Positions 11,952 to 18,385 of a DNA stretch of 64,000 nucleotides are shown here, in pieces. Each line of letters opens with the position of its first letter. Positions within the stretch are counted from its first letter, which is position 1. The position numbers and the translations under genes were made by a program. Source of the stretch: an uncultured cyanobacterium (GTDB taxonomy: Bacteria; Cyanobacteriota; Cyanobacteriia; PCC-9006; JAAUQQ01); contig OY970368.1 of assembly GCA_963718615.1 (NCBI GenBank), positions 5,056,001-5,120,000 of the forward strand, in the 5' to 3' direction. The notes beneath the pieces are model-generated. The model was not told the origin of the DNA. It made no database searches and was given only the letters and a program-made list of their open reading frames with translations.

Positions 11952-12650
11952 CTAAGGCAGAGATTTTGGGAAGTAAGTTTTGAGAAAAGGCTCACGGCAC
12001 CCCAGACGTTTGAGTACAGCCAAACAGTCTCGATTGCGAATTTCCAGCACAAGGCTGGTGATCGCTTGGGCTTGCTCGGGTTGGGCGGTGATTGTTTGGG
12101 TCTGATCGACCTGACTCAGAAGTTGCTGTTGTTCCTCAGGTTTTCGCCGTAGGGCAAAATCCCTCTGGAAATAATTGCGTAGATAGTTGAGCCCAGAGAT
12201 AGGGGTTGCGCTCGGCTGCAAAAGTTCAACCTCAAGATCGGTTGTAAACGCGGCCAGTTTACCGCTTTGTCGTGCCGCAATTTGCTGGTAGGCCAGTTGA
12301 GTCAGGGCAAAGTAGAATTTGTCGAGGGGCACGCCAGCAAAGCCCAGATCGATATTTGCATTGACAAAGGCGGTAAATCCAAGACCTACAGTAATGGCCT
12401 TGAGAACGATATCGAGCGTGATGGGAGTCTGGAGGCTAGCGGGATACAGAAGCCACAGGCAGGCCATGGGCAAGAAAAGCTGAAGGAGCACCCACCACCA
12501 AAGGCCAATAGATTTCCAGGGGGCGAAGAAGGGCGATCGACAATCGCGGGCAAATTTTTCGTAGGCAATGAGCAGGTTAAACACACCTGTGAGCAAGGCT
12601 ACGGCGGCAACAGGAAGCCAAGTGCCAATCTGCTGCATGATCTGCTGCAT
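11952..12650 (-). CDS. hypothetical membrane protein (about 3 TM helices plus helical C-terminal domain), third gene of the CHAT operon
   Basis: ATG at 12650 overlaps the TAA of the upstream gene (TAATG); hydrophobic segments WLPVAAVALLTGVFNLLIA, LWWWVLLQLFLPMACLWLL, IVLKAITVGLGFTAFV. Confidence 0.75.
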   Translation of the reverse strand: MQQIMQQIGTWLPVAAVALLTGVFNLLIAYEKFARDCRSPFFAPWKSIGLWWWVLLQLFLPMACLWLLYPASLQTPITLDIVLKAITVGLGFTAFVNANIDLGFAGVPLDKFYFALTQLAYQQIAARQSGKLAAFTTDLEVELLQPSATPISGLNYLRNYFQRDFALRRKPEEQQQLLSQVDQTQTITAQPEQAQAITSLVLEIRNRDCLAVLKRLGCREPFLKTYFPKSLP

Positions 12651-13348
12651 TAACGGTTGCCTCGCCTTGCCCATTGAATGGGGGGGTGGAGATGAAAGTA
12701 GCCTTTTGAGGTGAGGGAAAGGAAAAGCTTGGATGAAACGGGTTGTTGGCGGTATTGGCGATCGCGCAATCCCGGCAAAACCGTATAAAGCATGGGCGCA
12801 GAGAGTTGATCGATGTACCCTTTTCTCCAAAGCGATTGAACTAGAGCTTTGGTTTGGTCGAGGGGTTGATTGAGGCGATAGGCTAAGTCTTGAGGGCGTA
12901 GCGGGTGCTGGGAGAGGGCTTGTAGGATCGCGGTTTGGATTTGGTGAGTGGTGGTTTCTCCGCAAGATTGCGAAGCGATCGACTCTGACATCTGAGTCAG
13001 TAACGTTTCGACTTGCTTGGCCAAAGCATTCGCGATTTGCCCTAAGCCATTTAGGGGGCCAACGCTATCGGCGACTAAAACAGCACTCTTGGCACGTTCT
13101 TGAGCACTATAGTTGCGCTTGCGTTGTTGCAGCGCTTGACCATAGGCCTGGTCGATGCTGGAAGAGGACTGCACGAGCTGGCAGAGCTGCTGCGCGGACC
13201 CAGGGGCTTGGTTTTGCCAATGTCGAATGGCCTCTAGGAGTTGAGTGAGTTCCTCACCTGAAATATCTGTGGCAAATTGCTCTAGGGCATCTTGCAGCAC
13301 AGCCAGATCGATCTGGTCTTTGCTCAGATTTTCGGGGGAAACGCTCAT
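12650..13348 (-). CDS. hypothetical protein: N-terminal helical domain ending Y..QERAKS, C-terminal winged-helix-like domain
   Basis: ATGA overlap with the CHAT gene stop; ILQALSQHPLRPQDLAYRL...LVQSLWRKGYI...LSLTSKG resembles a wHTH (inference). Confidence 0.7.
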   Translation of the reverse strand: MSVSPENLSKDQIDLAVLQDALEQFATDISGEELTQLLEAIRHWQNQAPGSAQQLCQLVQSSSSIDQAYGQALQQRKRNYSAQERAKSAVLVADSVGPLNGLGQIANALAKQVETLLTQMSESIASQSCGETTTHQIQTAILQALSQHPLRPQDLAYRLNQPLDQTKALVQSLWRKGYIDQLSAPMLYTVLPGLRDRQYRQQPVSSKLFLSLTSKGYFHLHPPIQWARRGNR

Positions 13349-16300
13349 GCGCTAATGCCTCCAGTGAGAATAAAGCCGGCCCAGTAGAAGGGATCCATGT
13401 AGGGCTGGGGTGCTGTTGTCATTTTACCCGGATTCTTTGCCCAGTCCTCTTCAAGCAGGATTTGTTCGGCTTCGAGTTCCTTGCGCCAGTGATAGCCCAA
13501 GTTGCCTCTATTTTTCAAGTCTGAAATCCAGGCAATCAGGGCTGGGTACTCAATTTCTCGGAGCCATTGTTGGGCTTGGTGAAGGGCGGTTCCAGGACTG
13601 CTGCCCTCCAAGAGAATCTGATAAAACCGGATCACAAGCCAGGTGCTGGCGATTTCGTCCACTTGCCAGAGGGTGCTGAGGACGTTGGCGGCTCCGGCTT
13701 TGAGGAAGGCGCTGGTGAGGCCGACGTATTCTTGGTCGAGGGTTTGGTTGCCGCTGAGGGCGGTTTCGCAGGCGGCGATCGCGGCCAGACAGTAGGGTTT
13801 GAGGTTGAGTTGGGCGATCGCCCGAGCATCCATCAAGCCATCGCTAAGCTGAAGGGCGGATTGCTCGGGCTGGCGGTAGTTGTGGGTGCCGTGGCCGGTG
13901 AAGTGGAAGAAGCCCTGATGGGTTTGGAGAGCTGCGGTGATGGCGGTTTGGGTCACGTCATCGGCGTCGAGGGTGGGGCCGTTGGGCAGGAGGGCTCGGA
14001 GGATGGCGGCTTCGAGGGCGGAGTAGAGCAGCGGCGGTTGGCTCAAGTCGGGGTCTTGGACGATGGGGTCTTTGATGCAGAGGAGGGCGGGGTCGTTCGG
14101 CAGGGGCTGCGCTTGGGCTTGGAGGCTGAGGCCGGTTTGGAGGCTGGGCAGGTAGGTGCAGCGGTATTGGTCGTCGAAGCATGCGTGCAGCGGGAAGCAG
14201 TGGAGGTCGCGGTGGGGGATGAGGATGAGGTGGTCGATGTTTTGGCCAGTTCCCTGGCCAGCTCCCTGAAGATATTGGGTTTCGATTTCGGGGAGGCCGA
14301 GGAGGTCGCGAAGCTCTTGGATTTGGGCACTGAGGCCGGTGCGCCAGGGGTGGGTTTTGCGTTCTGTGGCGGTGATGTCTTTGCCTTTGGCGCGGTAGTC
14401 GCGGTAGTGGGCATCCCAGGTTTTGCGCCAGGTGTTGAAGCAGTGCTGGCGGTGGCGCAGGGCGGCGGGGTCGGGGTCGAGCAGGATGGGGTCGGGGTGG
14501 TGGGGTAGGAGCAGGAAGGTTGTTAAGGCATCTGTGCTTAGGTGCCAATACACCACTGCGGCATGGCCTGGTTTGGGCGGGGACGAACGCGGTTCGTCCG
14601 TACGGTGGTGGGTTGGATTGGCAATTAATTGCCGTAGGGTGGCGTGGCTGGGGCTGGTGATGGTTTCTTGCCAGTGGTCGAGGATCCAGGTGAGGCGGCG
14701 GTTTTTATAGAATTCGGCGGTTTCGAGGGCGGCGATGGGTTGGCCCTCGGCGATGAGGCTATCGACAGCGATGTGGCTGAGGCCGCTGAATTGGGTTTCG
14801 AGGCGTTGTTTGGCTTGGGTTGTGGGGGCTTGGTTGAGGAGGGTTTGGAAGAGGCGGAGGGCTTCGATGCGGTATGCCGTGGCATTGGTGGGTTGGTGGA
14901 GGGTGAGGCAGAGGCGGATGAGGCTTTGTAGGACTTCGAGGCGGAGGGGGAGGATTTTGGGGGTGTCTGGGTGATTTTTGGGGAGGGTTTCGGGGGTGAG
15001 GAGGGTGAGGGCGGTTTGGTAGGCGGTGAGGGCTTGGTGCCAGCACTGGCGGGCTTGGGTGGGGTTTCGTTCGTTATCGGCGTGGTGGTTGCCCTGAAGG
15101 CGGTGGGTTTCGCCGAGTTGGTGTTGCAAGTAGCCGTGGCCGAGGGGATGGGTGGGGGCGGGGCATTGGCGCAGGCCCTCCTGCAGGCTGGCGAGTTGGC
15201 CGGGGTAGCCGCGTTTGTTCAGGTGAGGATTGTTGAAGCGGAGGGCGGCGGGGGTGTGGGGATGGGCTACGCTGGGGGTGGGGGCGGCGAAGGTGGTTGT
15301 ACCTACGCTATACGTAGAGCTTTTGGCAGCGATGCCCCGGTTGGTCCAGGCTTCGTGAAAGTCCGGTTTGATTTCGAGGGCTTTGTCGGAGCTGGCGATT
15401 GCTTCCTCATATCGACCTAAATGATCACATAGGGTTGCTCCCCGGTTGCCCCAGGCTTCGTGCAAGTCCGGTTTGATTTCGAGAGCTTTGTCGTAGCTGG
15501 CGAGCGCTTCCTCATACCGGCCTAAGTTATCGAGTGAATTGCCCCGGTTGGTCCAGGCTTCGTGAAAGTCCGGTTTGATTTCGAGGGCTTTGTCGGAGCT
15601 GGCGAGCGCTTCCTCATACCGGCCTAGGTTTCCGAGTGAAACGCCCCGGTTGTACCAGGCTTCGTGAGAGTCCGGTTTGATTTCGAGGGCTTTGTCGGAG
15701 CTGGCGAGCGCTTCCTCATACCGGCCTAAGTTATTGAGTGAATTGCCCCGGTTGGTCCAGGCTTCGTGAAAGTCCGGTTTGATTTCGAGGGCTTTGTCGT
15801 AGCTGGCAATCGCCTCCTCATCGCGGCCTAAGTTAGCGAGTGAATTGCCCCGGTTGGTCCAGGCTTCGTGATCGTCCGGTTTGATTTCGAGGGCTTTGTC
15901 GGAGCTGGCGAGCGCTTCCTCATACCGGCCTAGGTTTCCGAGTGAAACGCCCCGGTTGTACCAGGCTTCGTGAGAGTCCGGTTTGATTTCGAGGGCTTTG
16001 TCGGAGCTGGCGAGCGCTTCCTCATACCGGCCTAAGTTATTGAGTGAATTGCCCCGGTTGGTCCAGGCTTCGTGCAAGTCCGGTTTGATTTCGAGGGCTT
16101 TGTCGTAGCTGGCGATCGCTTCCTCATACCGGCCTAAGCTTCCGAGTGAAATGCCCCGGTTGGTCCAGGCTTTGTGGTCGTCGGGTTTGAGTTTGAGGGC
16201 TTTGTCGTAGCTGGCGATCGCTTCCTCATACCGGCCTAGGTTTCCGAGTGAAACGCCCCGGTTGTACCAGGCTTTGTGAAAGTCCGGTTTGATTTCGAGA

Positions 16301-17202
16301 GCTTTGTCGTAGCTGGCGAGCGCTTCCTCATACCGGCCTAGGTTTCCGAGTGAAACGCCCCGGTTGTACCAGGCTTCGTGAGAGTCCGGTTTGATTTCGA
16401 GAGCTTTGTCGTAGCTGGCGAGCGCTTCCTCATACCGGCCTAGGTTTCCGAGTGAAACGCCCCGGTTGTACCAGGCTTCGTGAGAGTCCGGTTTGATTTC
16501 GAGAGCTTGGTCGGAGCTGGCGAGCGCTTCCTCATACCGGCCTAAGTTATCGAGTGAATTGCCCCGGTTGGTCCAGGCTTCGTGAAAGTCCGGTTTGATT
16601 TCGAGGGCTTTGTCGGAGCTGGCGAGCGCTTCCTCATACCGGCCTAAGTTAGCGAGTGAATTGCCCCGGTTGGTCCAGGCTTCGTGATAGTCCGGTTTGA
16701 CTTCGAGAGCTTTGTCGTAGCTGGCGATCGCTTCCTCATACCGGCCTAAGTTGAAGAGTGAAAGGCCCCGGTTGTACCAGGCTTTGTGGTCGTCCGGTTT
16801 GATTTCGAGGGTTTTGTCGTAGCTGGCGATCGCTTCCCCATAACAACCCTGCCCAAAAAGCGCATTGCCTTTCCCTAACCACCGCTCCGCCGTATCCAAG
16901 ACGCCAGTCAACTCAGCTTCCCGCTGTTGCACCTGCCGCTCCAAAACCTCCATCCGCCGCACCGCCACCAACCCCGTATCTACCCCAAACGACTCCGCCG
17001 TCTTTAGGGTCTCCAACGCCTCTTCATACTTCTCCTCCTGAGCCTGCTGCCAAGCCAACCGCAACCAAAAATCCTCATCACTCGGCCCCTCCACCGAAGA
17101 ATCAGACAAAGGCTTCTGTAGCCCGCTCTCTGACCACTCTGGGCTCTCAGCCTCCGGCACCGCCTCAACCCGCTGCTCCCGCTTCCCAAACGGCCACACC
17201 AT
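13345..17202 (-). CDS. TPR-repeat CHAT (caspase-like) protease
   Basis: About 15 TPR units followed by a CHAT domain with LILIPH..LH..P, FHFTGHG (His), AACET (Cys), STLWQV and WAGF; ATG at 17202 (MVWPFGKR). Confidence 0.92.
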   Translation of the reverse strand: MVWPFGKREQRVEAVPEAESPEWSESGLQKPLSDSSVEGPSDEDFWLRLAWQQAQEEKYEEALETLKTAESFGVDTGLVAVRRMEVLERQVQQREAELTGVLDTAERWLGKGNALFGQGCYGEAIASYDKTLEIKPDDHKAWYNRGLSLFNLGRYEEAIASYDKALEVKPDYHEAWTNRGNSLANLGRYEEALASSDKALEIKPDFHEAWTNRGNSLDNLGRYEEALASSDQALEIKPDSHEAWYNRGVSLGNLGRYEEALASYDKALEIKPDSHEAWYNRGVSLGNLGRYEEALASYDKALEIKPDFHKAWYNRGVSLGNLGRYEEAIASYDKALKLKPDDHKAWTNRGISLGSLGRYEEAIASYDKALEIKPDLHEAWTNRGNSLNNLGRYEEALASSDKALEIKPDSHEAWYNRGVSLGNLGRYEEALASSDKALEIKPDDHEAWTNRGNSLANLGRDEEAIASYDKALEIKPDFHEAWTNRGNSLNNLGRYEEALASSDKALEIKPDSHEAWYNRGVSLGNLGRYEEALASSDKALEIKPDFHEAWTNRGNSLDNLGRYEEALASYDKALEIKPDLHEAWGNRGATLCDHLGRYEEAIASSDKALEIKPDFHEAWTNRGIAAKSSTYSVGTTTFAAPTPSVAHPHTPAALRFNNPHLNKRGYPGQLASLQEGLRQCPAPTHPLGHGYLQHQLGETHRLQGNHHADNERNPTQARQCWHQALTAYQTALTLLTPETLPKNHPDTPKILPLRLEVLQSLIRLCLTLHQPTNATAYRIEALRLFQTLLNQAPTTQAKQRLETQFSGLSHIAVDSLIAEGQPIAALETAEFYKNRRLTWILDHWQETITSPSHATLRQLIANPTHHRTDEPRSSPPKPGHAAVVYWHLSTDALTTFLLLPHHPDPILLDPDPAALRHRQHCFNTWRKTWDAHYRDYRAKGKDITATERKTHPWRTGLSAQIQELRDLLGLPEIETQYLQGAGQGTGQNIDHLILIPHRDLHCFPLHACFDDQYRCTYLPSLQTGLSLQAQAQPLPNDPALLCIKDPIVQDPDLSQPPLLYSALEAAILRALLPNGPTLDADDVTQTAITAALQTHQGFFHFTGHGTHNYRQPEQSALQLSDGLMDARAIAQLNLKPYCLAAIAACETALSGNQTLDQEYVGLTSAFLKAGAANVLSTLWQVDEIASTWLVIRFYQILLEGSSPGTALHQAQQWLREIEYPALIAWISDLKNRGNLGYHWRKELEAEQILLEEDWAKNPGKMTTAPQPYMDPFYWAGFILTGGISA
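15335..16840 (-). repeat. about 15 near-identical 102-bp tandem repeats encoding TPR motifs
   Basis: Recurring ...ccaggcttcgtg...gtccggtttgatttcgagggctttgtcg...cttcctcataccggcc at 102-bp period. Confidence 0.95.
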
Positions 17203-17289
17203 CGCCCCATCTCCCACCAATACCTCCCCGCATTCTCCCAGAGATACCCCAGCCCGTCCGCGTATTTTTAATAACCTTCAAGAAACCCA
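17161..17289 (-). repeat. direct repeat copy 1 (CHAT gene 5' end plus upstream region, about 130 bp)
   Basis: Aligns with 17817-17945 and, in its core, with 19563-19604 (ccccagccc..ccgcg.atttt.aataaccttcaa.aaaccc). Confidence 0.85.
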
Positions 17290-17360
17290 AATATTTCTCC
17301 AACCCAAGCCCCGGCCCAGATACCAAGCTAAACACCAGGTATTTATCTCAAATACCCGCC

Positions 17361-17456
17361 TCACCTTCCAGAATCAGAAAACACCCGGTGTCTGCGGTAG
17401 TCTAGTGAGTCGGTTATGAACCATAACAGGGCGTGGGTGTCGAGAAGTACTTTCAT
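17361..17456 (-). pseudogene. truncated PIN-domain (VapC-type) toxin
   Basis: ATGA overlap with the antitoxin stop; MKVLLDTHALLWFITD, then VapC-like sequence is lost and a stop follows after 31 aa. Confidence 0.85.
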
Positions 17457-17695
17457 TCCATGTACTCCCGAAAATCGTCGAGCGGGGCATTAAAGTCGGG
17501 GAGGATGCGGATGAGTCCTCGGGCAGAACCAGGTATGCGACGCTCTTGCGAGGCGGGTTTTAGTTCATGTCCGATCGCGTCGGTTGGTTGGGGGGCTTGG
17601 ATGTTGAGGAGGAAATCAATAAAGTCAAGGACGAGTTTGGCGAGGGGATCGGGGAGTTGGCGGAGTTTGGCGATCGCGGTTTCGTGGGTGTTCAT
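17453..17695 (-). CDS. DUF2281-type antitoxin
   Basis: LRQLPDPL..VLDFIDFL and C-terminal PGSARGLIRILPDFNAPLDDFREYM. Confidence 0.85.
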   Translation of the reverse strand: MNTHETAIAKLRQLPDPLAKLVLDFIDFLLNIQAPQPTDAIGHELKPASQERRIPGSARGLIRILPDFNAPLDDFREYME

Positions 17696-17816
17696 CGGTC
17701 TGTATGGATTGAGTTTGGAGTGCTCTCTATTTTAGCGTTTGTCCCTCAGGCCCAGAAGCACCCATTCTGTGTTGTCCAGGCATCTCGTCGTCCGTTTTCA
17801 ACTCCCGCTACGCCCC

Positions 17817-18124: not shown

Positions 18125-18385
18125 ATGACCGCCAAAGACCGACTCCTCCAAGAACTTGACCAAACCCCAGACTTCCTCATCGAAGAAGTCCTTCACTTTC
18201 TTCTCTTCCTCAAAAACCGCCTCTTCAACCGCCCCCCACAACCCAACACGCCTAAAGAAGACAGCCTCCTCAATTGGGTCGATCGCTTAACCACCCAAGT
18301 CCCAGAAGCCGCTTGGCAACAAGTCCCCACCGACCTCGCCCAAAACCTCGATCACTATCTCTACGGCTCCCCCAAAGAATCGTGA
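18125..18385 (+). CDS. antitoxin-type small protein (DUF2281-like N-terminus, DLAQNLDHYLYG tail)
   Basis: LLQELDQTPDFLIEEVLHFLLFLK; PTDLAQNLDHYLYGSPK is typical of VapC-associated antitoxins. Confidence 0.8.
   Translation: MTAKDRLLQELDQTPDFLIEEVLHFLLFLKNRLFNRPPQPNTPKEDSLLNWVDRLTTQVPEAAWQQVPTDLAQNLDHYLYGSPKES

Follow-up and report, generated by a model that had tools for sequence, protein, structure and literature searches.

Genes and products of the locus

We analyzed a window of 64,000 nucleotides (nt) from an uncultured cyanobacterium (assembly GCA_963718615.1, contig OY970368.1, positions 5,056,001 to 5,120,000; coordinates below count from the first letter of this window unless another locus is named), which carries on its minus strand a three-gene operon, designated G1-G2-G3. 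The operon encodes, in this order, a tetratricopeptide-repeat (TPR) protease of the CHAT type, a protein with a helical N-terminal domain (N-domain) and a predicted winged-helix C-terminal domain (C-domain), and a small membrane protein. The comparisons described here identify G2 and G3 as an obligate pair to which the protease is an accessory, and lead us to consider, tentatively, that the three proteins together may form a protease-gated transcription switch at the membrane. The features on which the argument is built are as follows.

13345–17202, minus strand: G1, TPR-CHAT protease of 1285 amino acids (aa), counted from its ATG (17202); Pfam matches to TPR_1 (15 stretches) and CHAT (E 4.3e-41).
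15332–16842, minus strand: TPR array of G1, a 102-nt tandem DNA repeat in 14.8 copies with 89% matches (Tandem Repeats Finder).
13360–14322, minus strand: CHAT protease domain, G1 residues 961–1281 (Pfam; catalytic residues located in the translation).
12650–13348, minus strand: G2, 232 aa; AlphaFold2 (AF2) model with a predicted local distance difference test (pLDDT) score of 84.9; Z 11.5 to a MarR protein; no Pfam family above cut-off.
13088–13102, minus strand: QERAK motif, G2 residues 83–87, where the N-domain passes into the linker; candidate site of cleavage or recognition, from the motif distribution and the alignment with the A4 family described below.
11952–12650, minus strand: G3, membrane protein of 232 aa; AF2 pLDDT 86.7; hydropathy and charge analysis.

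The three open reading frames (ORFs; 13345–17220 for G1, with the ATG at 17202 and an alternative TTG start at 17220, 12650–13348 for G2, and 11952–12650 for G3) are joined by an ATGA overlap of the G1 stop with the G2 start (minus strand 13348–13345) and by a TAATG overlap of the G2 stop with the G3 start (minus strand 12652–12648). Downstream, the operon is convergent with rsgA (RsgA_GTPase, E 2.6e-55) across a gap of 47 nt.

In G1, the CHAT match (PF12770) reaches 141.7 bits, the cut-off being 24. The two catalytic motifs, each found once in the protein, locate the histidine at position 1104 (FTGHG; codon at 13891–13893) and the cysteine at position 1145 (AACET; codon at 13768–13770), and both residues are invariant in six of six G1 orthologues. 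The G1 translation shows no hydrophobic segment at its N terminus, and the protein is predicted to be a cytoplasmic protease with an intact His/Cys dyad, whose closest solved relatives by profile are the CHAT proteins of Craspase (Csx29; E 1.7e-8).

The AF2 model of G2 shows a well-folded helical bundle as the N-domain (residues ~4–90, pLDDT ~90), a flexible linker of low confidence (91–101), and a long helix running into a MarR-like winged helix (130–232). The last of these superposes on the MarR protein 2qww with a Z of 11.5 and a root-mean-square deviation (rmsd) of 2.6 over 75 residues (VIA-align), with 94 chains at Z ≥ 8; the structural matches are MarR and PadR proteins, and the top profile match is AdcR (E 5e-4). 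As modeled, the G2 C-domain has a winged-helix fold.

G3 is composed of three transmembrane (TM) segments (residues ~8–100), a conserved loop KFxRxxRSPFF, and a six-helix C-domain (~129–230; pLDDT 93–97 in the AF2 model), and its alignment holds 37 invariant columns in 23 sequences. Since the loop 31–46 carries four Lys/Arg residues in the charge analysis, the C-terminal domain should be cytoplasmic; this domain and the conserved basic loop are hence predicted to lie within reach of G1 and G2. Among the structure matches listed for the C-domain, at least 27 of 50 are CARD or death folds, headed by the Apaf-1 CARD with a Z (7.0; rmsd 3.1, 84 residues) that lies within the chance range of the tool for helical bundles. 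Foldseek of G3 against the PDB gave nothing at E ≤ 0.001, the Death, CARD, and EAD families of Pfam matched none of the 23 G3 members at E ≤ 10, a PDB profile search with G3 lent no support to a death fold, and a structure-atlas search with the C-domain returned a score of 0.76, which is noise; the death-fold likeness of the model is accordingly taken as a lead only. The same status is given to unnamed clusters from cyanobacteria, Acidobacteria, and Actinobacteria that whole G3 retrieved from the atlas at 0.93. A domain common to G2 and G3, which might have made them homotypic partners, was ruled out (hhalign probability 0.2%).

Neither G2 nor G3 matches a Pfam, NCBIfam, or PADLOC family above noise, and the literature searched, which did not cover the supplementary neighborhood tables of Kaur et al., yielded no description of the G1-G2-G3 trio or of the G2–G3 pair. 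G2 and G3 define two uncharacterized protein families. An earlier note on this DNA, made from its letters alone, had described three translationally coupled minus-strand genes convergent with rsgA, the first encoding about 15 TPRs and a CHAT domain with intact His and Cys, the second a helical domain, a linker, and a winged helix-turn-helix (wHTH)-like domain, and the third about three TM helices and a soluble tail, and had placed genes 2 and 3 in no named system; this description is borne out in each of its parts by the ORFs, overlaps, and gap, by Pfam and the orthologue alignment, by the AF2 model and MarR-fold match, by the three hydrophobic segments and soluble C-terminal domain, and by the family searches.

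The G2–G3 pair is the conserved unit

A profile of G3 was searched against 1.84 billion proteins, among which it found 94 representatives, and against 401 sampled cyanobacterial genomes, of which 40 contain a match, 39 in single copy and one in two copies. The 42 loci compared below are the window, all 40 non-window matches, and one locus from a metagenome-assembled genome; two metagenome loci, one equal to L009 and the other near-identical to L040, were not counted. Directly upstream of G3 lies a same-strand ORF in all 42 loci, and this ORF is a G2 homologue in 41 of them; the exception, L078, has a degraded G3 of 113 aa and a non-matching ORF of 122 aa, and was used neither in the alignments nor in the tree. 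The G2 and G3 reading frames overlap in 28 of the 42 loci, so that their coupling is not due to chance. The two families form an obligate pair.

A TPR-CHAT gene, on the other hand, is found directly upstream of G2 in only eight of the 42 loci (the window, L009, L040, L041, L043, L047, L074, and L079, with L041 and L047 cut by contig ends), and a ninth, L059, retains a CHAT remnant of which only the last ~65 residues survive. The protease is therefore accessory, and the conserved unit is the pair and not the trio. The earlier note had treated the trio as the unit and had itself named, as grounds for abandoning this view, homologues of genes 2 and 3 occurring mostly without a CHAT gene; 33 of the 42 loci have no intact CHAT gene directly upstream, and the view is given up here.

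In seven loci, G2 is short (97–107 aa) and consists of the winged helix only; six of these (L042, L050, L057, L062, L064, and L066), belonging to one lineage, lie beside or between two flavodiiron (flv) genes, which are directly adjacent to each other in most other cyanobacteria, unlike in this lineage. The genomes in which flv genes flank G3 have only two flv genes. In the flv4-2 operon, the membrane protein is ColA/Sll0218 (PMC5742850); its identity with G3 was considered and rejected, the gene between flv4 and flv2 in genome G042 encoding a 180-aa protein that is unlike G3 as judged by eye and not by alignment. At L099 (G002:C105, 4514–7185), a 594-aa protein combining a GAF domain (E 8.5e-10) with a G2-type winged helix (hhalign against G2 97.5%, E 5.9e-12) is followed by a 264-aa G3-like membrane protein (98.1%, E 1.2e-13). 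From the winged-helix-only G2 loci and this GAF-fused pair, the core of the system appears to be the winged helix plus G3, with an exchangeable input domain that may be absent, a CHAT-partner N-domain, or GAF. Where no CHAT gene lies nearby, the neighborhood of the pair consists of housekeeping genes, in other lineages for example with dnaX upstream and rnhA downstream.

Coupling to a single subfamily of TPR-CHAT proteases

The proteases coupled to the pair are 38–43% identical over the ~620–650 residues outside the TPRs, and score above 900 bits with the profile A3, as against 538 bits or less for all other CHATs in the 40 pair-bearing genomes. In six of the eight coupled loci, the protease gene and G2 share an overlap of between 4 and 40 nt, L047 being not measurable. 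The scores set the coupled CHATs apart as a subfamily of their own, which was met with nowhere but beside the pair. In a tree of G3 (41 rows), the coupled loci are scattered, the coupled label needs five changes, and a single clade is rejected (approximately unbiased test, p-AU 1e-4). For this test, L059 belonged to the coupled group, and L047 was entered either as unknown or with the other loci. The single protease subfamily, the scatter over the tree, and the L059 remnant are together consistent with an old three-gene operon that repeatedly lost its protease.

CHATs of other kinds occur within 8 kb of the pair in five further loci, as three CHAT–DUF928–CHASE2/GGDEF cassettes and two divergent TPS-CHAT genes; in L048, L052, and L056, from a sister genus, the pair lies 210–250 nt behind such a cassette.

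At the position of QERAK, a motif [QRH][EGQS][RK][ATS]K, written after the alignment was seen, is present in nine of nine coupled or remnant G2 proteins and in four of the 25 uncoupled full-length ones (8/8 and 5/26 before L047 was reclassified). One coupled locus has QGRTK, with Gly at the acidic position.

The N-domain recurs behind paralogous CHAT proteases

A second coupled operon, L085 (G000:C1:4356500-4364500), is present in the same genome. It is headed by the next-best CHAT by profile A3 (422 bits), a TPR-CHAT protein of 1028 aa, which is followed by P0127 (207 aa) and by a protein of 169 aa that has two TM segments besides a coiled coil. The TPR array of G1 is ~88% identical to that of L085, and a further feature of the window is shared with it.

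17151–17760, no strand assigned: 5' end of G1 and upstream region, duplicated before the paralogous CHAT operon L085 (blastn, 92.7% identity).

The alignment (617 bases, with L085 7276–7879) spans the first G1 codons and the sequence upstream of them. The likeness of the two operons in their 5' regions and TPR arrays suggests that a duplication or a gene conversion took place recently and that their regulation is shared.

The next-best CHATs in general (422–538 bits) precede proteins of the A4 family, to which P0127 belongs. This family aligns with the G2 N-domain over 72 columns (hhalign 85.3%, E 6e-6; 65% with a single sequence), and after the N-domain its members have a variable linker and an alpha/beta C-domain different from that of G2. 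Both the G2 and the A4 N-domains end in a conserved acidic-Arg-x-Lys motif that is followed by a variable or low-confidence linker, QERAK of G2 being aligned with the invariant DRQKR of A4. Among 13 loci with the N-domain outside the G2 family, a set in which C-domain-only A4 matches are not included, a CHAT gene stands directly upstream in eight and as relics in two, none is found within 6 kb in two, and one locus is limited by a contig end. In L093 and L090, the gene directly behind the CHAT gene encodes the N-domain and nothing else (proteins of 156 and 153 aa, respectively).

Further occurrences may be recorded here. In the same genome as the window, L091 (G000:C1:672000-681000) contains a 200-aa A4-family protein directly behind a C-terminal fragment of a CHAT protein, as a third, decayed copy. 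Free-standing 131-aa proteins with the G2-type N-domain only, and with no CHAT gene nearby, are found in L094, L095, and L096. One of these lies in genome G104, in which G2 is of the short winged-helix form, and this combination hints at a split gene.

Proposed mechanism and the evidence against it

The recurrence of the N-domain behind paralogous TPR-CHATs and the tracking of the motif with coupling suggest, from sequence comparison, that the protease switches the regulator G2 by cutting it. In the scheme that follows, we infer the signal, the cleavage and its site, the G2–G3 contact, and DNA binding. The TPR array of G1 would bind a ligand and thereby activate the His1104/Cys1145 dyad. G1 would recognize G2 through the helical N-domain and cut it at or beside E-R-A-K (residues 84–87), just before the flexible linker. 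Loss of the N-domain would then change either the hold of the cytoplasmic face of G3 on the winged helix or the binding of the latter to DNA, resulting in a transcriptional response. The earlier note had proposed that the CHAT protease acts on gene 2 near QERAK; the choice of partner and of site has thus gained comparative support, and the cutting keeps its presumptive character. A protease-gated, membrane-associated transcription switch built on the G2 winged helix and G3 is the reading that we favor, and we place it a little short of an even chance.

Several observations weigh against this reading. First, the association is sparse: an intact CHAT gene is missing directly upstream in 33 of the 42 pair loci, and 31 of the 40 pair-bearing genomes have no relative of the G1 CHAT subfamily at E ≤ 1e-40. 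The full G2 N-domain is kept in 25 uncoupled loci, and must therefore have a role without a G1-type protease. Second, with ~50 CHAT-domain matches in this genome of 6.1 Mb, an unusually large repertoire, loose proximity to a CHAT gene means little by itself. Third, besides having been formulated on an alignment already seen, the motif differs in the same direction in about three independent tree pairs, in the opposite direction in none, and not at all in about one (p 0.25). Finally, the N-domain homology between G2 and A4 depends on the hhalign value of 85%, with no strong HMMER match, and the G2 winged helix stays below the Pfam cut-offs (HTH_IclR 15.4 bits versus 22; MarR_2 14.1 versus 27).

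If the proposed mechanism is true, the freeing of a transcription factor by a CHAT protease would reach beyond CRISPR-linked systems into ordinary chromosomal signaling. Cyanobacterial genomes contain dozens of CHAT proteases, almost none with a known substrate, and the G1-G2 operon and its L085 paralogue would provide a testable protease–substrate pair for which both the recognition domain and the cleavage motif are predicted. Of the cyanobacteria sampled, about one in ten has the G2–G3 pair.

Comparison with known systems

Transcription factors are freed by TPR-CHAT or related proteases in Craspase (Csx30/CASP-sigma), CalpL/T/S, and PCaspase (10.1101/2023.06.23.546230), and a proteolytic release of this kind has been proposed for DdvA/DdvS (PMC11506125). 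By analogy, the protease-gated switch, which is the most economical model, would work like Craspase Csx29/Csx30/CASP-sigma, CalpL/T/S, or DdvA/DdvS, without the features that define membership in these systems. In the type III-E Craspase (Csx29, Csx30, Csx31, and CASP-sigma/RpoE), a TPR-CHAT protein is encoded with a multi-domain substrate, the cleavage of which frees a transcription factor (10.1101/2023.06.23.546230). However, the NCBIfam Csx29 model scores 45 bits on G1 against a cut-off of 300, the Csx30 chains in the PDB are not matched by the G2 profile at E ≤ 1, and no cas gene, including gRAMP/Cas7-11, was found among the neighboring ORFs, a dedicated scan for CRISPR arrays not having been made. 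Moreover, the winged helix is here fused to the presumed substrate instead of being a separate sigma factor, and the third gene encodes a membrane protein.

In DdvA/DdvS of Myxococcus xanthus, a TPR-CHAT module is likewise tied to a membrane protein, but it is periplasmic, fused to a transmembrane anti-sigma, and incomplete in its active site (PMC11506125), whereas G1 is predicted to be cytoplasmic, is a protein of its own, and has both residues of the dyad; the factor here is a wHTH protein. The EACC1–caspase association (Kaur et al. 2020) also joins a caspase-superfamily protease to a small membrane protein, in multicellular bacteria, with a single-TM gene 5' of a protease that has an N-terminal caspase domain (PMC7159879). 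In the present operon, the protease gene comes first, a wHTH protein is encoded in between, and G3 has three TM segments and a helical domain, so that gene order and architectures both differ (PMC7159879, PMC8195603). The trio thus matches none of the systems compared: the Csx29 score, the Csx30 search, PADLOC, and the comparison with EACC1–caspase agree in this respect.

Separase combines a TPR-like and CHAT-type architecture with an ExxR cleavage motif and the inhibitor securin. The spacing of E-R-A-K in G2 and of D-R-Q-K in A4 would similarly make P4 acidic and P1 basic; unlike in separase, P1 would be Lys and not Arg, and the coupled locus with QGRTK has Gly in place of the acidic residue.

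Alternative explanations

An extended form of the favored mechanism is an ancestral, modular, caspase-like cassette, carried by cyanobacteria, in which a separase-like cytoplasmic TPR-CHAT protease would dock on a dedicated helical CHAT-partner domain, cut after acidic-x-x-Lys, and free interchangeable outputs paired with small membrane proteins. The G2/G3 output would be a winged-helix transcription factor that a CARD-like domain keeps at the membrane, and repeated loss of the protease, in progress at L059, would have left free-standing pairs. We regard this generalization as somewhat unlikely; if it were true, it would represent a prokaryotic counterpart of death-fold/caspase signaling that serves gene regulation and not killing.

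It is also conceivable, although we consider it unlikely, that the G2 N-domain is a regulator of the protease, as a securin-like inhibitor, chaperone, or adaptor, and not its substrate, with the substrates of G1 being elsewhere and G2/G3 signaling independently. Separase is controlled by a co-evolving inhibitor (PMC11506125), and the N-domain-only proteins directly behind the CHAT genes of L093 and L090 would suit such a role, as would the confidently modeled helical bundle. On the other hand, the conserved basic motif, the disordered linker, and the exchangeable output domain look like a cleavable tether, and the N-domain is kept in the 25 loci that lack the protease.

A quite unlikely alternative is that the protease is merely a co-transcribed neighbor, G2 and G3 by themselves being a membrane-sequestration switch of the SdpR/SdpI type or a non-transcriptional membrane assembly factor tied to photoprotection. 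In Bacillus subtilis, the gene of the small wHTH repressor SdpR is followed by that of the multi-pass membrane protein SdpI, which controls the repressor by sequestration. Short G2 followed by G3 resembles this arrangement of a small wHTH gene and then a membrane protein, most pair loci have no CHAT gene, and the short form of the pair lies beside or between two flavodiiron genes in six loci. However, the likeness to sdpRI is an analogy only, the families differing in size and TM number, and G3 is not ColA/Sll0218. In addition, the coupled CHATs constitute one subfamily that was met with nowhere but beside the pair, their genes run into G2 in six of the eight coupled loci (by 4 to 40 nt), and the N-domain recurs behind paralogous CHATs.

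Finally, a defense or abortive-infection module, the latter being one of the options raised in the earlier note, is improbable. In such a module, the TPR-CHAT protein would sense a phage cue and activate G3 as a membrane-damaging effector, perhaps through CARD-like oligomerization, with G2 as regulator or inhibitor. This reading could draw on the CARD and death folds among the best matches of the G3 C-domain, on the action of CHAT proteases in Craspase and related defense cascades (10.1101/2023.06.23.546230), on toxin–antitoxin-like genes upstream of G1, and on the fast-evolving tandem repeat of the TPR array. However, the death-fold Z is within the chance range for helical bundles and has no Death, CARD, or EAD match by sequence profile. 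Against bacterial gasdermin and the other defense systems modeled in PADLOC, G3 matches no family and G2 gives one weak JetC match (E 0.0041), the relatives giving only weak generic wHTH matches. The pair, mostly without a protease, occurs once per genome in all but one of the 40 genomes that have it, and its surroundings are stable and of the housekeeping type, with rsgA in the window, dnaX and rnhA in other lineages, and a place between the two flv genes in a further one. We found nothing in support of a role of G1-G2-G3 in phage defense, and this part of the earlier note finds no support.

Surroundings of the operon

The genes neighboring the operon are rsgA, tusA, dnaJ, dnaK, DUF2281 ORFs, and an M23 peptidase gene. 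The number of promoter-like sites found was zero, and terminator-like sites were fewer than in shuffled sequences. Upstream of G1 (17363–17695, minus strand) stand an antitoxin-like DUF2281 ORF (E 3.3e-10; 80 aa) and, behind it, a stub of 31 codons with a start resembling that of a PIN/VapC toxin; located within the duplicated upstream region, the two look like a decayed toxin–antitoxin pair. A second DUF2281-like ORF occurs at 18125–18385. At L061 (3606–7052), the dnaX gene divergent from the G2–G3 pair carries an intein (Intein_splicing, E 2e-13), and its product is 1149 aa long, compared with ~700 aa in its relatives.

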